DNA from: a virus
IMG/VR virus record: IMGVR_UViG_3300045988_073372
Length of the DNA stretch: 33,152 nucleotides
Reading direction: 5' to 3' (one strand)
This document shows positions 6,733-32,314 of this stretch, piece after piece. The notes beneath the pieces were generated by a model. That model was not told the DNA's origin. It saw only the letters and a program-made list of their open reading frames with translations, and did not search any database. A program made the translations under genes and the position numbers. Position 1 is the stretch's first letter; each line of letters starts with the position of its first letter.

Positions 6733-6762
6733 GACCCTCCAATGGAGGGCCTTTGTTGTTTA
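6733..6762. terminator. Bidirectional intrinsic terminator
   Basis: CCCTCC(6735-6740)-AAT-GGAGGG(6744-6749), flanked by an A-run upstream and TTTGTTGTTT downstream. It sits between the convergent genes 6360-6728 (+) and 6760-6882 (-). Confidence 0.6.
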
Positions 6763-6882
6763 GCGAATGAGGGAGCGAACAAAGTAAAGAATCACAAGCA
6801 GCTCGTCCTCTTTGAGTTTGGAAAGCATGGGAACCAGTTCGGCCAGGATCATGGAGGTGTCATCGGATTGTATATTTTCCAT
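6760..6882 (-). CDS. Small protein (40 aa) resembling the repressor C-terminal helices
   Basis: ATG 6882 with an AAAGGAG RBS at 7-nt spacing. Sequence MENIQSDDTSMILAELVPMLSKLKEDELLVILYFVRSLIR. A possible promoter is TTGATT-17-TACTAT at 6953-6981. Confidence 0.5.
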   Translation of the reverse strand: MENIQSDDTSMILAELVPMLSKLKEDELLVILYFVRSLIR

Positions 6883-7026
6883 TTTTCTCTCCTTTACTAT
6901 TGCGCTTTGGGAATAAATAGAGTTTAATGTATACATATCAGCTGACAAAAAAATAGTACCACCCGACCGGGATTAAATCAACAGTATTCAACATGCGCCG
7001 CGCATGCAGAATAGAATCATATATGA

Positions 7027-7593
7027 TTGGAGGACGGGATAACGGATGTAGCAGCAAATGTCAGGGAGTTTCTGGACGCTCAGACAAAGGACAATCCTAA
7101 TCTGAGGACAAACGCACAAATCGCCGAGTACACCGGTTTATCGGAGTCAACCATAAGCCGACTGCGGACAGGGACTATACAGCCAAGCAGCCTTGTGGTA
7201 AGACAGATCGCCGCCGCCTTTGGAAAAACGGAAAAAGAGGTAATGGGTGAGCCGGTAGTCATGTGCGCCGGATCCGAGGTCATTAAAGATCTTATGTCTA
7301 TTTTTGACCGACGAATCCGGGAACGGCAGGAAAGCATGGAAAGTCTCCAGGCCAAGCTGGACAGCGCCCTGGAGATGATCAGGGAGAAGGATAAAAGGAT
7401 CCTTGCCCTTGAGACAGATAAAGACCATCTGACACATGATCTGGAAACGTCAAGAAAATGGGCAATCGCCTGTGCCGTGGTGTGCATAACGCTGCTGGTG
7501 GCGATAGTGGCGATACTGCTCTATGACCTGACACATCTGGATCGGGGATGGTTTACGAGATTACTCGACCGATTCGGCGGGGCGAATATATAG
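7027..7593 (+). CDS. XRE-HTH protein with coiled coil and C-terminal transmembrane anchor
   Basis: The HTH is NAQIAEYTGLSESTISRLRTG. The coiled coil is QESMESLQAKLDSALEMIREKDKRILALETDK. The TM segment is WAIACAVVCITLLVAIVAILLY. The only in-frame start after the upstream stop is TTG 7027, with no SD, so the start is uncertain. Confidence 0.65.
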   Translation: MEDGITDVAANVREFLDAQTKDNPNLRTNAQIAEYTGLSESTISRLRTGTIQPSSLVVRQIAAAFGKTEKEVMGEPVVMCAGSEVIKDLMSIFDRRIRERQESMESLQAKLDSALEMIREKDKRILALETDKDHLTHDLETSRKWAIACAVVCITLLVAIVAILLYDLTHLDRGWFTRLLDRFGGANI

Positions 7594-7604
7594 GAGGGGT
7601 TGAC

Positions 7605-8213
7605 GTGATCTGGTTTATTTTGTTTGCAACGGCCGTTATCATTATAGGGGCCAACGCGCTAAGCAAAAACACGCAGAAAAAAGTTTTTGAAAAAGAAGAG
7701 GCCGAAAAAGCGGCAAAAGAAAAGGAAGAACAGGAAGCCGCCAGAATTAAGGCGGAGCAGGAGGAAGCCGAGAAGAAAGCAGCGGCAGAACTGGAGAAAA
7801 AGCTACGCCGGATTTACACCTTTGACGTGGAGGGTGTGAAGGACAAGAACGCCAACGGCACCGACCGCCAGTCTATCCTAACCAAGGCCATGGAAAAGGA
7901 GGAATCAGACCGGAACAGTAACAAGGAGTGGTGTGACCAGTATTCCCCGGATATCACTCTTGGGGCCTACATCAAAGACGGAGTAAGAAGATGCAGCGTC
8001 CTGTTGGACAACAAGCGTGTAGGGGATGTGCCGCAAGAGGACTTGGAAACCGTGCGCGAGATCATGGTCAGATCGTACAGCACAATGGCCAACCTTTCCA
8101 CCGAAATTGATAAAGAAACAGGCGACCCAATCACCGCGCTGGAAGTAGATCTGTTTTATAAGCTGACCCCAGAAGAGTTGGAAAAAGAAGAAAATGAAGC
8201 GCAGAAAGAATGA
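7605..8213 (+). CDS. Membrane-anchored protein: N-terminal TM, E/K-rich coiled coil, HIRAN-like C-terminal domain (tentative)
   Basis: GTG 7605 lies 7 nt after AGGAGG. The alternative ATG 7548 has a weak RBS. The TM segment is VIWFILFATAVIIIGANAL. The C-terminus is FDVEGVKDKNANGTDRQSIL...VLLDNKRVGDVPQEDLETVREIM. Confidence 0.6.
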   Translation: MIWFILFATAVIIIGANALSKNTQKKVFEKEEAEKAAKEKEEQEAARIKAEQEEAEKKAAAELEKKLRRIYTFDVEGVKDKNANGTDRQSILTKAMEKEESDRNSNKEWCDQYSPDITLGAYIKDGVRRCSVLLDNKRVGDVPQEDLETVREIMVRSYSTMANLSTEIDKETGDPITALEVDLFYKLTPEELEKEENEAQKE

Positions 8214-9366
8214 AGCCGTCTGGATCGAAAAGCGGCAATACTGGCAGATAAAAGTTACCAACGATATGGGGGAGCGGAAAACTTTCTGCTCCTCTGTTGG
8301 TATGACAACAAAAAAGGGAAAATTGCAGGCCGAACGGAAAGCGGATGAGTGGTTGGAAAGCAGCACCACGGGAGGATCCGCGCGGGTGGAAGCGGTGTTT
8401 GAAAAATATATGGATCATCTGCGCAAAACTACCTCCACGGGATATGTGAGCAGGATGGCCTCCGTTGGCCGTTGCTGGGTGTGCAAGTATGCAGGGCGTA
8501 AGCGCATAGGAGCCCTTACAGAGGGGGACTGCGAATCGATCATTGCAGCGGCTTACAAAAACGGGGCATCAAAGCAGCATTTGAAAGGCATACGGCAGTG
8601 CCTCAGCGGGTTTCTAAAATTTTGCCGGAAAAACAGGTACACTACCCTGCACCCGGAAGAGCTTGCCATTCCCAAGGGCGCGCCGGGTGTACAAAGATAC
8701 ATCCTCACCCCGGATGAGATCACAACGCTCTTTTCCAGTGACACGACCATATTCAAGGGCAATGAGGTGCAGGAATTCCACATCCACGCCTACAGATTCC
8801 TGCTTCTTTCCGATCTTCGGCCCGGGGAGCTGGCCGGGCTAAAATGGTCAGATATAGACGGGGCGCAATACAGCATAAACAGATCCATCAACATACGAGG
8901 AGAGGTAACGCACGGAAAAAACGATAATGCCCAGCGCTCGCTCATCATGAACGATTACGCCGCCAGGGTGATAGCTGACCAAAAAGAACTGCTGCGCAAG
9001 TGCGGGATAATATCACCGTATGTTTTCCCCGACCGGCACGGAGGTTTTTGTTCGCAAAAAAATCTGCGGCTCAGCTGGTACAAATACTGTAAGTACAACG
9101 GGATAGGCCGTCGAGGAGAAAACAAGAACGGGGCACCAAGATATATCCAGCCCTATGAGTTCCGGCACACCTGCTACAGTGTCAATAAGGACATGCCGGA
9201 GACGCTTAAAAAAATGGCCTTTGGGCATTCTCGCAAATTTGACGGTGACACAGTATACAACCACGAGATGAGCGGAGACAAAGAGCGGATCGCCGCATAC
9301 AGCAACGCCGCATTTAGCAAAATTCTGGAAAAAAATCCACCCGCAAATCCACCCATTCAGAATTAA
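8194..9366 (+). CDS. int: Tyrosine recombinase / phage integrase
   Basis: 390 aa with an N-terminal SAM-like domain. Catalytic-domain pattern LLLSDLRPGELAGLKWSDI...YEFRHTC...FGHS...VYNHE. Confidence 0.9.
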   Translation: MKRRKNEAVWIEKRQYWQIKVTNDMGERKTFCSSVGMTTKKGKLQAERKADEWLESSTTGGSARVEAVFEKYMDHLRKTTSTGYVSRMASVGRCWVCKYAGRKRIGALTEGDCESIIAAAYKNGASKQHLKGIRQCLSGFLKFCRKNRYTTLHPEELAIPKGAPGVQRYILTPDEITTLFSSDTTIFKGNEVQEFHIHAYRFLLLSDLRPGELAGLKWSDIDGAQYSINRSINIRGEVTHGKNDNAQRSLIMNDYAARVIADQKELLRKCGIISPYVFPDRHGGFCSQKNLRLSWYKYCKYNGIGRRGENKNGAPRYIQPYEFRHTCYSVNKDMPETLKKMAFGHSRKFDGDTVYNHEMSGDKERIAAYSNAAFSKILEKNPPANPPIQN

Positions 9367-9633
9367 AAACTGGGGATATCGCATAAACGCACAGGTTAAA
9401 AAATCCCCAAAAACGGGGAAAACCCAAGTTAGATAAAAGCATAAATTAAACAATTATTACCGTTGGGAGGGAAGGCGTATAGCAAATAAAAATCCCTAAA
9501 TATAGGGCTTTTTTGAGTTATTTTATTTTTCGTCCACCCGCAAATCCACCCAATCAACGAAGATTCGTTCCAGGCTTGACTTTTTGGGTGTTGTCTGATA
9601 TGCTTATCTTGTCACCCAGCAATGGGCGTGGAT
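9336..9633. other. Putative attP region with arm-type repeats
   Basis: The 20-bp exact direct repeat TCCACCCGCAAATCCACCCA occurs at 9336-9355 (in the int 3' end) and at 9533-9552. Each copy holds two TCCACCC cores 12 bp apart. An inverted related copy GGGCGTGGAT is at 9624-9633. Palindrome AACGAA-GA-TTCGTT is at 9556-9569. Confidence 0.5.
9494..9514 (+). terminator. Weak intrinsic terminator downstream of int
   Basis: CCCTA-AATA-TAGGG followed by C and T6. Confidence 0.4.
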
Positions 9634-9663
9634 TGAAATGTAGTGGAAGGTAATTAAACTTTC

Positions 9664-9706
9664 GCAGAAAAGCGGAGCGCAACGGCTCCGCCTTTTCTTT
9701 TTCTGC
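9664..9706. terminator. Bidirectional intrinsic terminator closing the - strand cassette
   Basis: GCGGAGC(9672-9678)-GCAACG-GCTCCGC(9685-9691). The outer arms are GCAGAAAA and TTTTCTGC, and there are T-runs on both senses. Confidence 0.7.
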
Positions 9707-9708
9707 GC

Positions 9709-10227
9709 TTAGTTAATTTTGCACCGGTCAGAGGCAAAGGATACAAGTGCGCTGGTGGTGTACATAGACTGCACCGTTGCCACCCTTGCGAAGTATTCCT
9801 CCCGCAACATGGGCTTGCCCACATCCTCCAAAATCTCTGCCCTTAATTTTTTGGAAAACTGAGTACCCAGCCCCACCAGACGCAAGCCGCGCACAATCTG
9901 GGTCTTGTTGTCCAGCAGTACCATAGTCACCGCATAGCCTTTTTCCTCCGGAACCTCCGGCAGGGAAGGAGTACGGGCCAGCTGCAAAGCAAACGGGGAA
10001 TCGTTCCACGGCAGGGACCCCAGCTTGGAGAGCAGGAACAACACACCGCCGACACGGACAAAGCGAAACTCGCAGGCCGTGCCAGCCTGAAACGCTGCGA
10101 TCTCTCCGGGAGTGGGGGAGTTGTAGTTGTACACCAGCAAAAAACCGGATCCGTCCAGATCAAAATATGCGCCCTCCTTGGACAGATTAAGCCATGGGGC
10201 AGGCTTGCAGACTTCAAACATTTCCAT
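9709..10227 (-). CDS. Hypothetical protein (172 aa), terminal gene of the attP-proximal cassette
   Basis: ATG 10227 with an AAGGAGGAAG RBS. I recognise no family. Confidence 0.65.
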   Translation of the reverse strand: MEMFEVCKPAPWLNLSKEGAYFDLDGSGFLLVYNYNSPTPGEIAAFQAGTACEFRFVRVGGVLFLLSKLGSLPWNDSPFALQLARTPSLPEVPEEKGYAVTMVLLDNKTQIVRGLRLVGLGTQFSKKLRAEILEDVGKPMLREEYFARVATVQSMYTTSALVSFASDRCKIN

Positions 10228-10243
10228 TTGTTTCTTCCTCCTT

Positions 10244-10411
10244 TTAGTTAAGTTCTACGGACTTCGTTTTTTTGGCGATGTCCCGCATGATCAGGTTGAC
10301 GATGTACCCGGACACCGTCCTGTTATCCGCGTCAGCTGCGGCCTGTATCTTGGCCTTAAGGTCAGGAGTTATCCTGACCTTAAGCATGTCTGTCTTGATC
10401 GTTTTTTCCAT
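10244..10411 (-). CDS. Ribbon-helix-helix (Arc/CopG-like) DNA-binding protein, 55 aa
   Basis: Hand-translated; it is below the ORF-track cutoff. Sequence MEKTIKTDMLKVRITPDLKAKIQAAADADNRTVSGYIVNLIMRDIAKKTKSVELN. GGAGGG RBS. The order strand, helix, helix is typical of RHH proteins. Confidence 0.65.
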   Translation of the reverse strand: MEKTIKTDMLKVRITPDLKAKIQAAADADNRTVSGYIVNLIMRDIAKKTKSVELN

Positions 10412-10420
10412 GGTCCCTCC

Positions 10421-10753
10421 TCACTCGTCAAACCATTTTACCGTAACGCCATGCGGATCACCCGCATCGTACAAGAGCTCGCCGGTGTCAAGCCGCTCGA
10501 TCAGATATGGATCAGACCAATCAATGCCGTCCACCCGCCTCTGGGAAAAGTCCGACTCGCACTCGTCGTCCCATTGATCCAGATCCGGTGCGGTGTAAGT
10601 GATGCAATACTCATTTTCATCCTTGTCAACGACGATCTCGCTATAATCATCATCGCCCGCCCAATGCTCGTCATCCGTAAAAAACAGCCTGAGAGTCTTA
10701 CCCCCGTTCACCAGGTCGATCCCGTAGTTGTAGTGCTTACGCGCGATAGTCAT
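10421..10753 (-). CDS. Hyper-acidic small protein (110 aa, about 29 D/E vs 9 K/R)
   Basis: ATG 10753 overlaps the upstream TGA as ATGA, with a GGGAGGAAG RBS. D/E clusters include DDEHWAGDDDYSE and DLDQWDDECESD. Confidence 0.65.
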   Translation of the reverse strand: MTIARKHYNYGIDLVNGGKTLRLFFTDDEHWAGDDDYSEIVVDKDENEYCITYTAPDLDQWDDECESDFSQRRVDGIDWSDPYLIERLDTGELLYDAGDPHGVTVKWFDE

Positions 10754-11355
10754 ATTGTTTCTTCCTCCCTTTTCAATTTTTTTGCATCCAGCAGTTTTTC
10801 GATTTCAGCCAGTCTGGCCAGCAGCTTTTCTTTCTCATCGATCAGGGCGCTCCTGGTTTCAAAGTTGTCGTCCTCTATGACCTCCATGGTCACGCCGCAG
10901 GGCAGCGCTGCCTCATCCAGTATGGTCTCAGGTACGCTGCTGAGTACCACCACACTGCCCTCCTCGACCACGCTGCGCCAATTTTTCACGCTGCCGCCGC
11001 TTGCGGGGCCGCCTGCGGTGTAATAGACATCCTCTCCGACTCTGGCACCGCTGTCCCGGCCGGTGGCGCTGGACAACACCTTGCCAAAGATTTCCACGGG
11101 CCCGTGCCATTCGGTGCATTCGTCCGCAAACGTGAGGCGGACGGAAACGCGCTTGACGGTGTCCATGCGGTCATCCTCTCCCCAGATGTTCCGCATGATC
11201 TCCCGCACCTGCGGCAGGCTTGCGGTGGGCACCATCCAGGCCTTGCCCTCTGCGTCCCACCTGGCTCCGCCGATCTTGCGGATGGCGGAGACAAATGCGG
11301 CGTTGTAAGGAGTGTACACGGCGGTCTGGGTTCCATTGTTTTTAGTGGCGATCAT
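10750..11355 (-). CDS. Hypothetical protein (201 aa) with an N-terminal DUF5710-like motif and a C-terminal coiled coil
   Basis: ORF 10750-11649 trimmed to ATG 11355 (RBS GAGGAGGAC). YTPYNAAFVSAIRKIGGARWDAEGKAWMVP resembles the DUF5710 signature as I recall it. Confidence 0.6.
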   Translation of the reverse strand: MIATKNNGTQTAVYTPYNAAFVSAIRKIGGARWDAEGKAWMVPTASLPQVREIMRNIWGEDDRMDTVKRVSVRLTFADECTEWHGPVEIFGKVLSSATGRDSGARVGEDVYYTAGGPASGGSVKNWRSVVEEGSVVVLSSVPETILDEAALPCGVTMEVIEDDNFETRSALIDEKEKLLARLAEIEKLLDAKKLKREEETI

Positions 11356-11381
11356 GATTTTGTCCTCCTCTTTTTTCTTTA

Positions 11382-11591
11382 TCAGGCGAGTCCCCACACG
11401 GTCTCCCAGCCGTTGGGGTGGTAGTCGCTCTTGCTGTGCAGAGCCTCGGTAGTGTCGAGCATGTCGAGCGCGATGCGGTCGATGACGAGACGGTTGCAGG
11501 AGTCCTCCGCGGTGATGTACCGATACTTGCGAGTGTCCAACACCCCGTAGGAGATTACCTTCTGCGCAAATGCTTTGTTGATCTTTTTCAT
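11382..11591 (-). CDS. Hypothetical protein (69 aa), first gene of the cassette
   Basis: ATG 11591 preceded by GAGGAGGAC, about 23 nt downstream of the predicted TSS. Confidence 0.6.
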   Translation of the reverse strand: MKKINKAFAQKVISYGVLDTRKYRYITAEDSCNRLVIDRIALDMLDTTEALHSKSDYHPNGWETVWGLA

Positions 11592-11620
11592 TTTTTTGTC
11601 CTCCTCTTTTTGATGTACTT

Positions 11621-11649
11621 ATCTTACCACATTGTGGCCACAAAGTCAA
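11621..11649 (-). promoter_or_regulatory. Cassette promoter TTGACT-17-TAAGAT with operator-like palindromes in the spacer
   Basis: On the - strand the -35 is at 11649-11644 and the -10 at 11626-11621. The spacer contains the perfect 12-bp palindrome TTGTGGCCACAA (11632-11643), overlapping CCACA-T-TGTGG (11627-11637). Confidence 0.7.
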
Positions 11650-11696
11650 GCGGTAAATGCAAAAAAGTTCCGATTTATCTATATTTTTTTGAAAAT

Positions 11697-11720
11697 AAAA
11701 AAGGCGGGATCTCTCCCGCC
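11697..11720 (-). terminator. Intrinsic terminator ending the late/lysis operon
   Basis: On the - sense: GGCGGGA-GAGA-TCCCGCC followed by TTTTTTATTTT. Confidence 0.8.
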
Positions 11721-11736
11721 TTGAATACGCTAATAC

Positions 11737-12090
11737 TTAATTTTTTACCCTTGCAATCGCCCCATACGCGCCGTTTGCCGCCAGAGATACCACTAACCCA
11801 TTGACCAGCGTCAGCACAGCGGAGGATACCGTAAGCCCACCGGTAAAGATAGTCGCAGCCAGCAGCACAATAACGGCCACGATGTAACTGTATATCTGCG
11901 TTGGGATCTTGGAGATAACGCCCAGCCCCTTGGTGAGCTGGACGAACAGCGCCACAACGGCGGTGGCCCCACCCACGGTGAGCAGCGAAGTCCACGTGAA
12001 AAACTCCGGCTCTGCCCCGGTGTCGGCAAAAGCCGCCAGCGGCAACAGAAAGATGCAGAAGGTCAACAGAATGAGTTTGATCTTTTTCAT
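11737..12090 (-). CDS. Multi-pass membrane protein with N-terminal signal-like peptide (holin-like or accessory lysis protein)
   Basis: MKKIKLILLTFCIFLLPLAAFA followed by about 3 hydrophobic segments. It is located after the endolysin. Confidence 0.5.
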   Translation of the reverse strand: MKKIKLILLTFCIFLLPLAAFADTGAEPEFFTWTSLLTVGGATAVVALFVQLTKGLGVISKIPTQIYSYIVAVIVLLAATIFTGGLTVSSAVLTLVNGLVVSLAANGAYGAIARVKN

Positions 12091-12111
12091 TTTTTGTTTT
12101 TCCTTTCGTTT

Positions 12112-12408
12112 TTATCGGTCACTTTCGTCAAGATGTTCCAACCGGTCTATCCGGCGGTGCGCCTGCTTCGCGGAGGATTCCACCGCAGTCATGCGGCTAT
12201 ATAGCTCCGTGTTTACCTTTCGCTGTTCCCGGTTCTCAGTTTTTATGTCGTCCACACCGGATTTGACATACCCCAGTTCCGTTAAGATGGTGCCGGTCTG
12301 CTGCCCCTCCCCGCGCTCATCATGGGTCTTGCTCCGCGCAAAAGCCAGATACCCAAATACTATGCTGCATACGGTGCCGACAACCGCCAGAATAGATACC
12401 CAATCCAC
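12112..12408 (-). CDS. N-terminally membrane-anchored coiled-coil protein (holin-like, BhlA/XhlA-type architecture)
   Basis: GTG 12408 with a GGAGGTG RBS immediately after the endolysin stop. The TM segment is VSILAVVGTVCSIVFGYLAF, followed by a coiled coil. Confidence 0.5.
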   Translation of the reverse strand: MDWVSILAVVGTVCSIVFGYLAFARSKTHDERGEGQQTGTILTELGYVKSGVDDIKTENREQRKVNTELYSRMTAVESSAKQAHRRIDRLEHLDESDR

Positions 12409-13188
12409 TTACACCTCCACCACCCGCGTATACCGGGGATTATTGGAGATGTAGCCTACCCGGCCTTTGTAGTCCACTCGATACCAGCCCTCACCAGACC
12501 AGTCCCGGATTGGGAGTCTGTCCCCCCGGTGCGCCGTGCCCAGCCGCTTTCCGAGGATGTTCCCGGCCTCCCGCACGTTGACGGATCCCAGCACCTCCAC
12601 GGTCGGGGTCTTTGGGGTCAGGTCGATGTCCTCACCGTCCAAATCCGGGAAATACTTGGGTCTGCCGCACACGCCCCAGCCGCCCCGCTTGTAGGGACGC
12701 ACAACCACGCCCTCCGCACGGCCTATGCACTCCACGGTATTCCCGCCCCCGATATAGATACCCACATGGTAGATTTCGGACGGCTCGAACCCGTCCCCGT
12801 CCTTGTCCGTCCACTTAAATACAAGGTCGCCAGGCTGAAGGTCAGAAACGTCAATCCGTTTGCAAATCCCAAAAAATCCCCGGCTGGACAGGTCGCTCTT
12901 TTGCAACCCCAACTCCTTCAGGCACCAGAAAACAAACCCGGAACAGTCGCCGCCACGGATGGGGTTTACCCCCTGTGCGTCCAGCTTGGCATACAGGGTC
13001 TTGATCATCTCCACCCGCTTGGCGTAGGGGATAGAGCTGGTTTTCAACCGCCCCTCCTGCTTGGCTATCCAGCTGTTGCGTGCCCGCTCGTCCATGGCGG
13101 TCATGTTCGCCCCGTTACCGCCCCAGACATAGCACCATGTGCCAGCCTGCCCGGCGGCAAAGTCGGCAAAATCCTTGCCAGTTACCAT
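12409..13188 (-). CDS. Endolysin: NlpC/P60 (C40) peptidase with C-terminal SH3b-like domain
   Basis: GGDCSGFVFWCL...YHVGIYIGG is the Cys/His motif. The C-terminus GDRLPIRDWSGEGWYRVDYKGRVGYI is SH3-like. ATG 13188 with a GAGGTG RBS. Confidence 0.85.
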   Translation of the reverse strand: MVTGKDFADFAAGQAGTWCYVWGGNGANMTAMDERARNSWIAKQEGRLKTSSIPYAKRVEMIKTLYAKLDAQGVNPIRGGDCSGFVFWCLKELGLQKSDLSSRGFFGICKRIDVSDLQPGDLVFKWTDKDGDGFEPSEIYHVGIYIGGGNTVECIGRAEGVVVRPYKRGGWGVCGRPKYFPDLDGEDIDLTPKTPTVEVLGSVNVREAGNILGKRLGTAHRGDRLPIRDWSGEGWYRVDYKGRVGYISNNPRYTRVVEV

Positions 13189-13224
13189 ATAATCACCTCT
13201 CAAAATTGATATCTGTCCTTTCCG

Positions 13225-15560: not shown

Positions 15561-17207
15561 TTACGTCAATCGCCCGATCATGCCCACGGCGGTATTCTCC
15601 CCGGAACCGAGGATGTAAAAATCCATGAGCCGCCCGGTAGTGCCGATGGTCAGTTGCTGGATCTGGGACTGCACCACGTACAATTTCCCGGCAGAAAAAT
15701 ACGCTATGGCGTTATTCACGGATACAGTTTTCTCATCGCCGGTAAAAAAGTACAGGATATCGTTTTCCAGCTTCAATTTTATCTGGCTGGTGCTCTCACC
15801 AATAACGATGCCGCCGTTTACCGTGGAGGTTTGGGCCATTAACCGGATAAAGCTGTGAATCTCGGAAAACTGCCGTGTGGTTTCGCCGTCTAAATCGCTC
15901 ACGGTTTCGGAGATGCTGGTAAAGGATGCTTCAATCTGTCCGGCCAAGATCTCAAACCGGGATTGCATGCTGGATCTTAATTGTTCCAGGTCTCCCGTTG
16001 TGGCGTATTCCTGCAACGCCTCCATGATGATGGCCTGGGATTGTTGGATCAGTTGGGTTGTATTTTGTGCGCTGTCGGATATGGCAGACCGCAAACTGTC
16101 TGCTGTCATTTCCAGCTCCTTGGTGATCCTCCGCGTCTCGATCACCGCGTACTGGGTGGCACTGCTTACCCCCTGATCCATGGATACAATGGTTCCGGCA
16201 ATGGAGCTTCTCACACTGCCGATATCCACGCTTTCATACCGATTCTGTAAGGCGTTGTAGCGCGTTTTCACAATCTTAGCCTTAGCAGATATACCTAAGC
16301 GAGAAAAATAAACGCCTACAACGTCTCCCAGATTCACGTTTTCCACGAACTCTTTAGATTGATACCAGGATACCGTGGTGCTTATGGTCGGCACCCCGGG
16401 ATCATGGTTGGAGATGTATTCCTGCGCTTTCTGCGTCAGCTCTTCGGCGGTGGGTTTGTTTTCAAATTCTTCCGTCAGGTCTAACAATAAGATCCGGGTA
16501 AAATCAAATTCGCCCTCCACCGGCACATACGATCTGCCAAGGTCGGCGCTTCCTTCTTCCTCCGAGTACCAGTACGGATATACGCCTGTATATACACCGC
16601 TGCCATCTTCTTCCTGGTTGACATCCGTCATGTTTTTCCCGTACCGGATTGTCACGCCGTTGTCTTTCCCACGGTGTGCCCATAATTTTACCTGGTAGCG
16701 GTCAAACTCCAGCTCCCCGCCGTAGGTATCCAGTAAGCTGCCTCTTTGCCCGGCCACCAGAGACCGGGCAGAAGAAGGATAGGACACAACAAAGTCAGAT
16801 ATAACCGTCTTATCCGTTTCATACTCAAACGGATTATCGGTAACGGCGTTGGTTTTCATCCCCTCCAACGCAGACGCAAGGGATGGAGCGTTAAAAGGCT
16901 CTATCACAATGCCGCTCAGGTCATAGCTCAAGTGCTGGGCATTGATGGTCACCACCCCGTTTATGGGACGGCTTATCTTATAGACCCTAAAGGGCTGGGG
17001 CCTTGCGGTAGGATTTGGCTTTGCCAGTATAATGGAGCGTAGTGTTACATCCGCATAATGCAGACCGTTCAGCCTGTATTGCATTTCCAGCTCAAAGGGC
17101 CCGTTTAATGTTTCCTCCACCACACAGGAGATGCAATCAGACAACGCCCCCAACCCATTGGTATCCCACGCCGCAGCAGTGGGAGGATACAGTCTCGGAT
17201 AGTTCAT
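15561..17207 (-). CDS. Tail-associated protein Tal (prophage endopeptidase-tail family N-terminal region)
   Basis: Located after Dit. ATG 17207 overlaps the Dit TGA as ATGA; the alternative ATG is at 17219. The C-terminal third is coiled coil. Confidence 0.75.
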   Translation of the reverse strand: MNYPRLYPPTAAAWDTNGLGALSDCISCVVEETLNGPFELEMQYRLNGLHYADVTLRSIILAKPNPTARPQPFRVYKISRPINGVVTINAQHLSYDLSGIVIEPFNAPSLASALEGMKTNAVTDNPFEYETDKTVISDFVVSYPSSARSLVAGQRGSLLDTYGGELEFDRYQVKLWAHRGKDNGVTIRYGKNMTDVNQEEDGSGVYTGVYPYWYSEEEGSADLGRSYVPVEGEFDFTRILLLDLTEEFENKPTAEELTQKAQEYISNHDPGVPTISTTVSWYQSKEFVENVNLGDVVGVYFSRLGISAKAKIVKTRYNALQNRYESVDIGSVRSSIAGTIVSMDQGVSSATQYAVIETRRITKELEMTADSLRSAISDSAQNTTQLIQQSQAIIMEALQEYATTGDLEQLRSSMQSRFEILAGQIEASFTSISETVSDLDGETTRQFSEIHSFIRLMAQTSTVNGGIVIGESTSQIKLKLENDILYFFTGDEKTVSVNNAIAYFSAGKLYVVQSQIQQLTIGTTGRLMDFYILGSGENTAVGMIGRLT

Positions 17208-29172: not shown

Positions 29173-29415
29173 TTATCGCTTCCAATTGCCACCTTTTTCC
29201 GGGTGTTGTTTGTTGTGACACGCATGGCAGAGGCTTATCAGGTTATTATTTTCCCATACAAGCTCCGGATATTCGTCCGCACGTTTGATGTGGTGTACCT
29301 CTGTCGCCTCAACTGCCCTGCCGTATCTCTTGCAGTGCTGGCATTTGTATCCGTCCCGGCGCAGGATGGCCGCACGCTTGCGCTTCCACCGCGTGGATGT
29401 ATAGTCAAACGGCAT
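29173..29415 (-). CDS. HNH endonuclease (packaging-associated)
   Basis: CQHCKRYG...VHHIKR...NLISLCHACHNKQH. ATG 29415 overlaps the methyltransferase TGA as ATGA. Confidence 0.9.
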   Translation of the reverse strand: MPFDYTSTRWKRKRAAILRRDGYKCQHCKRYGRAVEATEVHHIKRADEYPELVWENNNLISLCHACHNKQHPEKGGNWKR

Positions 29416-30151
29416 CAATCGTTCCCCGCAAATAGTTTTATCTTTGTTCTTTCGGTTTCCAGCCTCTTTGTCGCCATATCAAAATATCCTTTGTGCGTCT
29501 CAAAGCCCCAGTATTCCAGCCCCGCACGGTGACATGCGATTAAACTTGATGCACTGCCCACGTGTGTATCAAGTATCTTGTATCCCGGTTTTGCGTAGTG
29601 GTTAAGCAGCCAGGTATACAAGGAGATTGGTTTCTGCGTGGGGTGGAATCTTTTCTCAGTGTTTCCTTGTGAGCTTGCTTCCACATACGCCGCATTCCCT
29701 GGAAAAGAAGTCCAGGCATATTCAACCGGAGCCATGGAAAATCCTTCCCTCGGGATGTTTGTCTTGCGCCATACGATAAAGCAGCGCGTAGGTGGGAGAT
29801 CAAAGTAATTCCCGCCCCATATAATCTGGTCATTGCTGACCCGGGCGAGCTCCCGAAAGTATGAATCATCCGGTGCAACGTCCCATGTGCGTATATCTGC
29901 GTCGTCAAAGATACCCCCTTGACTGTATTTCGTCGCCCATGTCCCGCCCGTCCGACAAATCGTAACGCGAGAACCGTCCTCCAAATCTTCCGGTCGGGCC
30001 GTTCCAGTCAGTTGCCCCCCACAAGACCACTCTTGTTTGCATTTGCAGCGTTGCCGTATGGAGGATCAACTATGGCCAGATCAAAAAACTTGTCTGGGAA
30101 CATTTTCATCCCGTCCATGCAGTCCATGTTATATAAGCCAGTTTCCAACAT
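29415..30151 (-). pseudogene. DNA methyltransferase (N6A/N4C, DPPY...HPTQKP type) split by a frameshift at a G6 tract
   Basis: The N-terminal ORF, ATG 30151 to TGA 30008, reads MLETGLYNMDCMDGMKMFPDKFFDLAIVDPPYG...GLVGGN*. The remainder (to 29415) is in the -1 frame: GGTWATKY...QIIWGGNYF...HPTQKP...LDTHVGSASS. The frames overlap at the C6 on the + strand, 30015-30020. Confidence 0.8.
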
Positions 30152-31597: not shown

Positions 31598-32314
31598 TTA
31601 CATCAGCACATGGCTCATCAACACTGCCGTGGTCACAGGCCCCACGCCGCCCTTGAAGGGGATGAGGTTGATCCCAGGATCGTACTCATCGTACCTATCA
31701 CCAACATAGTCCCCTCCTACGTTAATCACTGTGCATCCGCGAGTCACCCACGTCCAGTCCAGCAGTCCCTTTTGCCCGGATGCACATACGACAATATCCG
31801 CACCGGCTACCAGCTTAAGCAGGTTGCCCTTGTCCGTCTTGCTGTGGCACACCGTCACAGTGGCATCCCGAGCCAGCATGAGCATGGCCGTGGGCTTGCC
31901 TACACGTTCAGACCGCCCGATCACTACCGCATGTTTGCCCGCTATGGGGATATTGTAGTAGTCCAGCATACAGATGATCGCCTCGGCGGTGCAGGGAGTG
32001 TCTCTATAGATTTCCCCTTCGTATGCGCCCGCCCTGCCCCATACACTTTGCCCATCTACAGAGTGCATACCAACTTCCGTAGCGCATTCGCAGATGTCAA
32101 TCACATGCGTTTCTATGTATGCGTCCGACATGCAATCACTGCACTGCACATGTATTTTCCACCGCTCTGCTTCCTTCCTGATTGCCGCCAGATATTGCGG
32201 ATCTTCAGATCCGTCCACCAGTACGGTCAATGTCTGCTGCCACGCGTTTTCTTCGATCCGCTCTGCGTACTGCTCCCGCAGGGCATCCGCTACTGGTTTG
32301 CCGTACAGTATCAT
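31598..32314 (-). CDS. FolD-like protein (methylene-THF dehydrogenase/cyclohydrolase homolog), shortened
   Basis: Collinear by eye with bacterial FolD: ILYGKPVA..., PCTAEAIICMLDYYNIPIAGKHAVVIGRSERVGKP, VTVCHSKT, ADIVVCASGQ, VINVG, GGVGPVTTAVLM. It is 238 aa against about 285, and the DGILVQLPLP region is missing. Confidence 0.7.
   Translation of the reverse strand: MILYGKPVADALREQYAERIEENAWQQTLTVLVDGSEDPQYLAAIRKEAERWKIHVQCSDCMSDAYIETHVIDICECATEVGMHSVDGQSVWGRAGAYEGEIYRDTPCTAEAIICMLDYYNIPIAGKHAVVIGRSERVGKPTAMLMLARDATVTVCHSKTDKGNLLKLVAGADIVVCASGQKGLLDWTWVTRGCTVINVGGDYVGDRYDEYDPGINLIPFKGGVGPVTTAVLMSHVLM

Follow-up and report, generated by a model that had tools for sequence, protein, structure and literature searches.

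A self-promoted cassette of exchangeable genes around a constant ribbon-helix-helix regulator in a temperate phage: a possible acr-aca-like counter-defence operon

The virus record IMGVR_UViG_3300045988_073372 from IMG/VR comprises 33,152 nucleotides (nt), referred to here as the window, i.e., the whole stretch of DNA that was analysed, and represents the genome of a temperate, siphovirus-like phage. Between its lysis genes and its attachment site attP, at positions 9664 to 11720, lies a cassette of five small genes (g1 to g5), one of which (g4) encodes a ribbon-helix-helix (RHH) protein. A preliminary description of this region had viewed it as an autonomous five-gene system with its own promoter, operator and terminators, located in a slot typical of cargo genes, and had left lysogenic conversion, defence and anti-defence as options for its function. 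The features of the cassette are the following, with protein lengths given in amino acids (aa):

11722-11701, minus strand: intrinsic terminator of the late (lysis) operon, AAGGCGGGA-GAGA-TCCCGCCTT followed by TTTTTTATTTT
11649-11621, minus strand: sigma-70-type promoter, TTGACT-17-TAAGAT, with a TG extended -10 element, 52 nt downstream of the late-operon hairpin
11643-11627, minus strand: putative RHH operator TTGTGGCCACAATGTGG in the promoter spacer, with TGTGG-type half-sites in alternating orientation, ~11 bp apart
11591-11382, minus strand: g1, 69 aa, first cargo gene, in an exchangeable position
11355-10750, minus strand: g2, 201 aa, with a HARP-like N-domain (residues 1-58), a beta domain (69-160) and a coiled coil (167-200)
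10753-10421, minus strand: g3, 110 aa, hyper-acidic, optional cargo
10411-10244, minus strand: g4, 55 aa, RHH DNA-binding protein
10227-9709, minus strand: g5, 172 aa, member of a very large mobile-element family
9660-9707 (core stem 9672-9691), both strands: cassette-closing hairpin, usable as a terminator in either direction

All elements named in the preliminary description, namely the terminator, the promoter with its spacer palindrome, the five open reading frames (ORFs), the bidirectional terminator and attP, are indeed present, with the cassette encoded on the minus strand. The late-operon terminator, a 9-bp stem with 6 GC pairs followed by a T-run, has a folding energy of -16.8 kcal/mol (z = -4.0 relative to shuffled sequences) and is conserved in sibling phages. 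The hairpin at the other end of the cassette, ~200 bp from attP, reaches -24.7 kcal/mol on the minus and -24.5 kcal/mol on the plus strand (z = -3.5 and -4.3, respectively); it marks the end of the cassette, which it insulates from the integrase gene that runs towards it. Each of the five ORFs is preceded by a GGAGG ribosome-binding site, and the gaps between them measure, in order, 26, -4 (an ATGA overlap), 9 and 16 nt. For the last four genes (g2 to g5), the ratio of nonsynonymous to synonymous divergence (dN/dS) relative to their homologues ranges from 0.13 to 0.43, indicating that they are real coding genes. The promoter match alone is not significant, with 6 promoter-like sites found in the region versus 5.1 expected. 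The spacer contains a perfect 12-bp palindrome, TTGTGGCCACAA, which lies inside TTGTGGCCACAATGTGG and is the sole copy in the window; as its chance expectation is 0.16-0.44, this single site is not significant by itself either, and its significance depends on comparisons with related loci.

Such loci, numbered here with the prefix L, were gathered using g2, g5, g1 and the RHH protein as queries. Those siblings that reach far enough upstream share the end of the holin gene and the late-operon terminator with the window, and those reaching downstream (L104, L107 and L114-L119) share its integrase gene. The cargo between these landmarks differs, as is evident from the order of genes in the individual cassettes (genes without a counterpart in the window are named by the length of their product in aa):

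window: g1-g2-g3-RHH-g5
L104: AcrIC5-like-g2-g3-RHH
L012/L102: 66-g2-g3-RHH-98-146
L006: 66-g2-RHH-98-146
L105/L106: 66-RHH-146
L107: g3-like-RHH-146-like
L110: g1-g2-RHH-98-143
L118: 146-RHH-g5

Across eight different cargo arrangements, the RHH protein remains 93-95% identical. Its gene is associated with a promoter of the form TTGAC(T/A)-TTGTG[NNN]ACA(A/T)TGTGG-TA..AT in every locus with enough upstream sequence (18/18) and, conversely, each such promoter with enough downstream sequence is accompanied by the RHH gene, so that the two elements show a one-to-one co-occurrence. Over nine promoter variants, the sequence TTGTG...ACA(A/T)TGTGG is invariant; the only changes affect positions 6-8 and 12 of the spacer and individual positions within each hexamer. 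The exact 29-nt promoter pattern was absent from the metagenome and genome collections searched and present in only one IMG/VR contig. L009, the one related cassette without an RHH gene, contains g5 (92% identical) and a g3 homologue behind a different promoter, from which the operator is absent. A synteny comparison of the lysin-attP slot, as proposed in the preliminary description, thus reveals cargo genes that have been reshuffled around a constant promoter, operator and RHH gene. The notion of one five-gene system did not survive this comparison: since the genes assort independently among sibling phages, we rejected the possibility that they form a single multi-component machinery.

The suggestion of an autonomous unit, by contrast, gained in strength. 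L006 and L013 carry the module 66-g2-RHH-98-146 on the opposite strand and in another slot, between the early genes and the gene for the small terminase subunit of a phage with a P22-type portal, and the homology of L006 to the window only starts ~24 nt upstream of the -35 element. Given this change of strand and slot, the unrelated packaging and portal module and a boundary just upstream of the -35 element, the sequence comparisons indicate that the segment from the promoter to the RHH gene is a mobile and autonomous unit and that the genes around the RHH gene are interchangeable cargo.

The protein that stays constant in this unit, g4, exceeds the Pfam threshold for TacA1 (28.4 bits compared to 21; E = 1.7e-6), although only with its RHH part (profile positions 2-36 of 80), and also matches a NikA-like family and Arc-like repressor families in PHROGs, in agreement with its initial assignment. 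The closest solved chain is an 88-aa DUF1778 protein (6ajm) of the TacA1/DUF1778-type RHH antitoxin family, which aligns to residues 3-43 only. Because the 55-aa protein aligns solely to the DNA-binding part of TacA1 and 6ajm, it lacks a toxin-neutralising tail and is predicted to be a bare RHH DNA-binding domain of Arc/CopG size. It shares with the minimal repressors Arc, Mnt and CopG its length, a fold limited to beta-alpha-alpha, and a putative operator within a promoter, made up of short repeats at a distance of about one helical turn. It has no significant sequence relationship with Arc or CopG, however, its best Pfam matches being TacA1 and the NikA-like family, and NCBIfam yielded no useful match to it. 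The TacA/AtaR (DUF1778) antitoxins resemble g4 in their N-terminal RHH region. Unlike them, however, g4 is devoid of the C-terminal toxin-binding half, has no adjacent GNAT toxin and lacks a conserved downstream partner.

These features bear on the earlier proposal that g4 and g5 might constitute a type II toxin-antitoxin or regulator-effector pair. Gene order, protein sizes, the 16-nt spacing and the above-threshold TacA1 match would fit such a pair, the two genes are again adjacent in L118, and fusions to a DNA-binding domain occur in a few members of the g5 family. However, near-identical RHH genes precede unrelated 98-aa or 146-aa genes or, as in L104, end the operon; the RHH gene occurs without g5 in L104, L006, L012, L105-L107 and L110. 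Members of the g5 family, in turn, are mostly found without any RHH gene, as in L009, L030, L094-L100, the Leptospira phage LE1 and the plasmid pOBV01, and g5 neither contains a recognised toxin domain nor shows a fold with a match in the Protein Data Bank (PDB). All three defining features tested (an antitoxin tail, a toxin domain and a conserved pair) were absent, and we consider a dedicated g4-g5 pair highly improbable. What stands of the regulator-effector proposal is its first half: g4 does have the properties of a regulator, but rather than serving a single effector, it appears to control the promoter of the whole operon.

A potential clue to the role of the cargo is provided by L104. 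Its first gene encodes a 69-aa, full-length member of the anti-CRISPR (Acr) family AcrIC5 (PF22147; 81.7 bits versus a cut-off of 27, profile positions 2-53 of 53). This gene sits exactly in the position of g1, and the RHH gene is the last of the operon, an order that corresponds to the canonical layout of operons composed of acr genes and a gene for an anti-CRISPR-associated (Aca) regulator. Moreover, the RHH-less cassette L009 opens with a gene for a 166-aa acidic protein with an AcrIC5 domain at its C-terminal end (4.5e-19). Two more distant homologues of g5, one in L097 and one on the conjugative plasmid pOBV01, are also found in counter-defence settings. AcrIC5 itself is acidic and prevents type I-C systems from binding their target DNA; its homologues are not limited to Pseudomonas, and with one of them as bait, an acr locus of a clostridial phage has already been discovered. 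Aca proteins are known to autorepress strong acr promoters via inverted repeats (PMC9410906), and an RHH-type representative, Aca14, was validated in 2026, its inverted repeat being located at the -10 element (PMC13551039).

On balance, we therefore regard it as probable that the cassette is a mobile, self-promoted, acr-aca-like counter-defence operon that is autorepressed by its RHH protein. We infer that g1, g2, g3 and g5 have anti-defence activity, that they are expressed early and that the RHH protein mediates repression; each of the four proteins would be a candidate inhibitor of host immunity with its own target. In this scenario, the host-type promoter with its extended -10 element would fire immediately upon entry of the phage DNA into the cell, with a low activity in the prophage, yielding a transcript that carries a string of small, functionally independent cargo genes. 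The RHH protein made from the same transcript would then bind the TGTGG repeats in the spacer and shut the promoter, establishing an Aca-like negative feedback, and the cargo would be swapped between phages by recombination. Binding of g4 to the putative spacer operator is suggested by the position and co-occurrence of the two elements.

The similarity to known acr-aca operons, including the Aca14 loci (PMC13551039), extends to several levels: a promoter with an inverted repeat at or next to the -10 element, small exchangeable cargo genes combined with one constant small DNA-binding gene, and a prophage-borne unit that moves between mobile elements. There are also differences. None of the genes in the window belongs to a known Acr family, and additional cargo (g5, or the 98-aa and 146-aa genes) is located downstream of the regulator. 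Furthermore, the operator of Aca14 has been described as an AT-rich motif that overlaps the -10 element, whereas TTGTGGCCACAATGTGG is not AT-rich, fills the spacer, abuts the -10 element and overlaps the TG of its extension. As for AcrIC5 itself, a family member occupies the g1 position of L104, the family domain opens the g5-containing cassette of L009, and g3 is similarly acidic, but neither g1 nor g3 displays sequence similarity to AcrIC5.

Several observations weigh against this interpretation. Most importantly, searches of Pfam, PHROGs, PADLOC and NCBIfam did not match g1, g2, g3 or g5 to any Acr or known anti-defence family; since the cargo of the window itself thus matches none of these families, the case for counter-defence rests on guilt by association from sibling cassettes. 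One further such association, a g5 homologue in the integrase-lysin slot of L097 that adjoins a gene with a precomputed AcrVA2-like label, carries little weight, as this label was not reproduced by a Pfam scan. The siblings are also closely related, with the whole intergenic region being ~90-95% identical, so that the conservation of the operator is only weak evidence of constraint; indeed, it is just modestly stronger than the synonymous divergence (dS) of the genes, with 1 change per 29 nt of promoter at a dS of ~0.2 between the window and L006, and 4 changes per 29 nt at a dS of ~0.18 between the window and L104. In addition, the loci found with the RHH query contain the RHH gene by construction. 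Finally, relatives of g2 in distant phages adjoin genes for SNF2 helicases, serine or tyrosine integrases and cI-like repressors, a neighbourhood with which a role in DNA metabolism or regulation agrees as well as one in anti-defence, and the fusion of a few g5 relatives to the DNA-binding domain HTH_59 hints at a regulatory function.

Could the cassette instead consist of accessory genes for DNA metabolism or regulation without any part in host-virus conflict? In such a case, g2 would recognise forked or branched DNA and thereby aid replication or recombination, g5 would be a regulator-associated domain, and the RHH protein would time their expression. The evidence for this idea largely comes from g2. 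This protein belongs to phrog_18108 (1.4e-20), a family of unassigned function, and has more than 222 homologues, none of them annotated; the family is represented on 110 IMG/VR contigs and also on phage-plasmids. Its AlphaFold model (predicted local distance difference test score, pLDDT, 88.9) comprises an N-terminal beta-beta-alpha-beta-beta-alpha domain, an all-beta domain with the conserved glycine-rich loops GRDSGA and SGGSVKNW, and a 34-residue C-terminal helix. It thereby bears out the beta-rich middle and coiled-coil tail that had been predicted initially, whereas the DUF5710-like motif proposed for the N terminus remains below threshold (PF18974, residues 30-45 only, 15.3 bits versus a cut-off of 26.5, E = 0.017). 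In Foldseek searches, the N-domain alone gave weak local matches to the HARP domain of SMARCAL1 (4o66; probability 0.96, E = 0.088, target-normalised template modelling score 0.51) and to the N-terminal half of XPB (2fz4; probability 0.92). Sequence and profile searches of the PDB provided no support for a HARP-like fold, with the Pfam HARP family not being reached, and returned only chance-level matches for g2, g3 and g5.

Both the HARP domain and the damage-recognition domain contained in the N-terminal half of XPB mediate structure-specific DNA binding, and in SMARCAL1 the HARP domain serves the SNF2 motor. In addition to the predicted fold of residues 1-58, g2 shares with these proteins a link to helicases, because distant relatives are translationally coupled to SNF2-family helicase genes (L077, L084 and L086), and members of its family are often located beside integrases and cI-like repressors; the fusion of g5 relatives to HTH_59 would likewise suit a regulatory role. 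However, g2 is a stand-alone protein in which the HARP-like domain is combined with an unrelated beta domain and a coiled coil, and the structural match is both local and weak (E ~0.09). No SNF2 helicase was detected among the early-region ORFs scanned in the window, and g2 is dispensable in siblings with the same backbone, given its absence from L105, L106, L107 and L118. Nor would one expect core replication factors to lie outside the replication module, to have a host-type promoter of their own and to be shuffled with an Acr-family gene. We therefore judge a purely DNA-metabolic or regulatory role to be unlikely.

Some further properties of g2 and its relatives deserve mention. The genes for distant g2-like proteins (~33-36% identical) lie directly upstream of, and often overlap, genes for ~549-aa SNF2-family helicases, at around positions 5000-7700 of L077, L084 and L086 (also in L027, L080 and L087), an order that echoes the HARP-plus-SNF2 arrangement of SMARCAL1. 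The 146-aa cargo protein (encoded at 7076-7516 in L006, 6430-6867 in L012 and 5221-5661 in L107) has an N-domain in common with g2 (hhalign probability 91.5%) but differs in its C-terminal part, suggesting that a HARP-like module is reused on different cargo. In L030 (5001-6097), a g2 homologue (40% identical) is followed without a gap by a g5 homologue (31%); this second, distant co-occurrence of the two families is the only one among 76 g2 loci.

Another alternative is that the cassette is a moron expressed from the prophage for the benefit of the lysogen, conferring superinfection exclusion, anti-phage defence or lysogenic conversion at a level set by the RHH protein. Both its architecture and its position, with an own promoter and terminators and a place between the lysis genes and attP, are classic for such elements: as morons do, it lies between conserved modules and varies in related phages. 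The variability of the cargo among siblings is also typical of defence hotspots, and in L001 the g2 homologue stands alone on the strand opposite to its neighbours. On the other hand, none of the five proteins matched a defence system in PADLOC-DB at E<=1, and the only sibling cargo that can be assigned to a family is an anti-CRISPR protein rather than a defence protein. The proteins are small, single-domain and soluble, without nuclease, ATPase, TIR, SIR2 or membrane features. Furthermore, the product of a gene at 7548-8213 in the lysogeny module is likelier than the cassette to be a prophage-expressed exclusion factor. A moron that benefits the lysogen thus appears improbable and, among the three functions left open by the preliminary description, the comparisons favour anti-defence, while the absence of PADLOC matches speaks against defence.

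Returning to the proposed counter-defence operon, the individual cargo proteins differ considerably in their distribution. The g5 protein belongs to phrog_12389 (3.5e-19), again a family of unassigned function; its homologues make up 1017 representative clusters at E<=1e-3 and have been found in phages, phage-plasmids, a conjugative plasmid and a Tn7-like island, without a conserved gene partner. It has no match in Pfam, NCBIfam or PADLOC and none to a toxin family. Its AlphaFold model is confident (pLDDT 95.3; predicted template modelling score 0.89), and no Foldseek match to it was obtained in the PDB (best probability 0.14) or BFVD (best probability 0.44). The search for homology to known functions that had been envisaged in the preliminary description hence left all four proteins other than g4 outside annotated families and, for g5, also without a structural counterpart in these two databases. 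The HTH_59 domains in g5 relatives are found in P0210 and P0172, one being C-terminal and the other N-terminal, and several other family members have unannotated N-terminal extensions of 100-220 aa.

One g5 homologue is encoded on pOBV01 (L200; AP012045.1), a conjugative plasmid of Oscillibacter, 3 kb downstream of the gene for a 1484-aa polyvalent protein, in a region that looks like a leading-region anti-defence island. The polyvalent protein contains LPD18, ArdC-N (anti-restriction), M78 peptidase and LPD25 domains. The two genes are located at 8744-13198 and 16236-16844, and the run of small genes also includes DUF2786/DUF7168 and DUF932 members.

By comparison, g1 and g3 are narrowly distributed. 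An identical g1 protein is encoded on 12 contigs, always in the first position; apart from one marginal tblastn match in phage genomes, no other matches were obtained, and Pfam, NCBIfam, PADLOC and PHROGs contained no matching family. While the same position is occupied by the 69-aa AcrIC5-family protein in L104, it holds an unrelated 66-aa protein in L006 and L012. We also considered g1 as a diverged AcrIC5 protein but rejected this possibility, because g1 and the first gene of L104 have only their 5' untranslated region and first six codons (MKKINK) in common. The g3 protein is as hyper-acidic as initially stated (net charge -20, isoelectric point 4.06) and might possibly act as a DNA mimic. 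Profile searches and, for phage genomes, tblastn did not detect a family, a PDB entry or a phage-genome sequence related to it; homologues only occur in sibling cassettes (L012, L104, L107 and L009). In L006 and L110, g3 is absent and g2 directly abuts the RHH gene.

The remainder of the window places the cassette in its genomic setting. The minus strand encodes the terminase, portal, tail and lysis proteins in addition to the cassette, as well as the early genes, including those for SSB, a DUF6291 protein and a FolD-like enzyme, whereas the plus strand encodes a cI-like repressor, a 221-aa membrane protein and the integrase. The following features are of relevance:

13203-12409, minus strand: NlpC/P60+SH3 endolysin, followed by two small membrane proteins at the end of the late operon
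8194-9366, plus strand: tyrosine integrase (PF00589), convergent with the cassette
9336..9556, no strand: attP region, with the crossover near 9462 and arm-type repeats on both sides
7027-7593, plus strand: cI-like repressor
7548-8213, plus strand: 221-aa, membrane-anchored, Glu/Lys-rich protein, between the repressor and the integrase
31598-32314, minus strand: FolD-like tetrahydrofolate dehydrogenase/cyclohydrolase (PF02882, 2e-36), in the phage early region
29415-29984, minus strand: ORF matching only the C-terminal part of an N6/N4 DNA methylase family (PF01555, profile positions 155-220 of 221)

The position of attP, which the preliminary description had placed beside the bidirectional terminator, was located with the help of L116, an integrated copy of the same phage, whose 99% identity to the window extends as far as position 9462, with bacterial genes following beyond this point (encoding a DUF4097 protein, an Na/H antiporter and a thiamine transporter). 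This junction is bracketed by 24-nt direct repeats, TCCACCCGCAAATCCACCCA(T/A)TCA, at 9336-9359 and 9533-9556, which resemble arm sites; one copy falls within the 3' end of the integrase gene. Because no tRNA genes were found, attP does not correspond to a tRNA site. Searches with Rfam did not identify any RNA family in the window either. In L116, the called start of the DUF4097 gene (6743-7288) is located inside phage-derived sequence at the junction, so that the prophage appears to sit at the 5' end of this gene. The 390-aa integrase is found at the same position in L104, L107 and L114-L119, and by eye, the translations from L104 and L107 are near-identical to that of the window.

A blastn search against 50,697 phage genomes did not yield any isolate phage matching the region. 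The host-flank proteins of L116 are at most 65-68% identical to proteins from metagenome-assembled genomes of Acutalibacteraceae, Ruminococcaceae and other Clostridia, and these low values indicate that the host belongs to an uncultured lineage of gut Clostridia, probably within the Oscillospirales. In the lysogeny module, the ORF at 7548-8213 overlaps the start of the integrase gene, and its slot is variable in siblings, containing a gene for a 212-aa lipoprotein-like protein in L104 and one for a 390-aa Ltp-family lipoprotein in L009; Ltp is a superinfection-exclusion family. A gene of the PF02882 family (241 aa) is also present in L006, whose packaging and portal module is unrelated to that of the window. 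The ORF at 29415-29984 may be a truncated or mis-started methyltransferase gene, as judged from its partial alignment.

Architectures of the acr-aca type are already known. Novelty might lie in the cargo, above all in the g5 and g2 families, and in employing the RHH gene and its operator as a search handle. To our knowledge, descriptions of anti-defence loci in strictly anaerobic gut Clostridia are scarce, and we know of no bait regulator in this group. More tentatively, and with considerable doubt, we propose that the RHH gene and the TGTGG operator mark an unmined family of anti-defence operons in phages of gut Clostridia and that at least two of its cargo families represent new kinds of immune inhibitor. 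One of them would be g5, with at least 1000 clusters and a fold unmatched among solved and predicted viral structures; the other would be g2, a stand-alone protein in which a HARP-like domain is joined to a coiled coil. The latter would bind branched DNA and might imitate, or else shield, the structures in DNA that are sensed by nucleases of the host.

If the cargo turned out to be unrelated to defence, the cassette would be an ordinary autoregulated moron. If, however, the RHH protein and its operator are of the Aca type, they would offer a guilt-by-association handle on the families of g1, g2, g3, g5 and the 66-, 98- and 146-aa proteins. Among these, g5 stands out as a very widespread protein, found in phages, phage-plasmids and conjugative plasmids, with a confident yet unmatched predicted structure, and the operon of L104, with its AcrIC5-family gene, provides a natural control.

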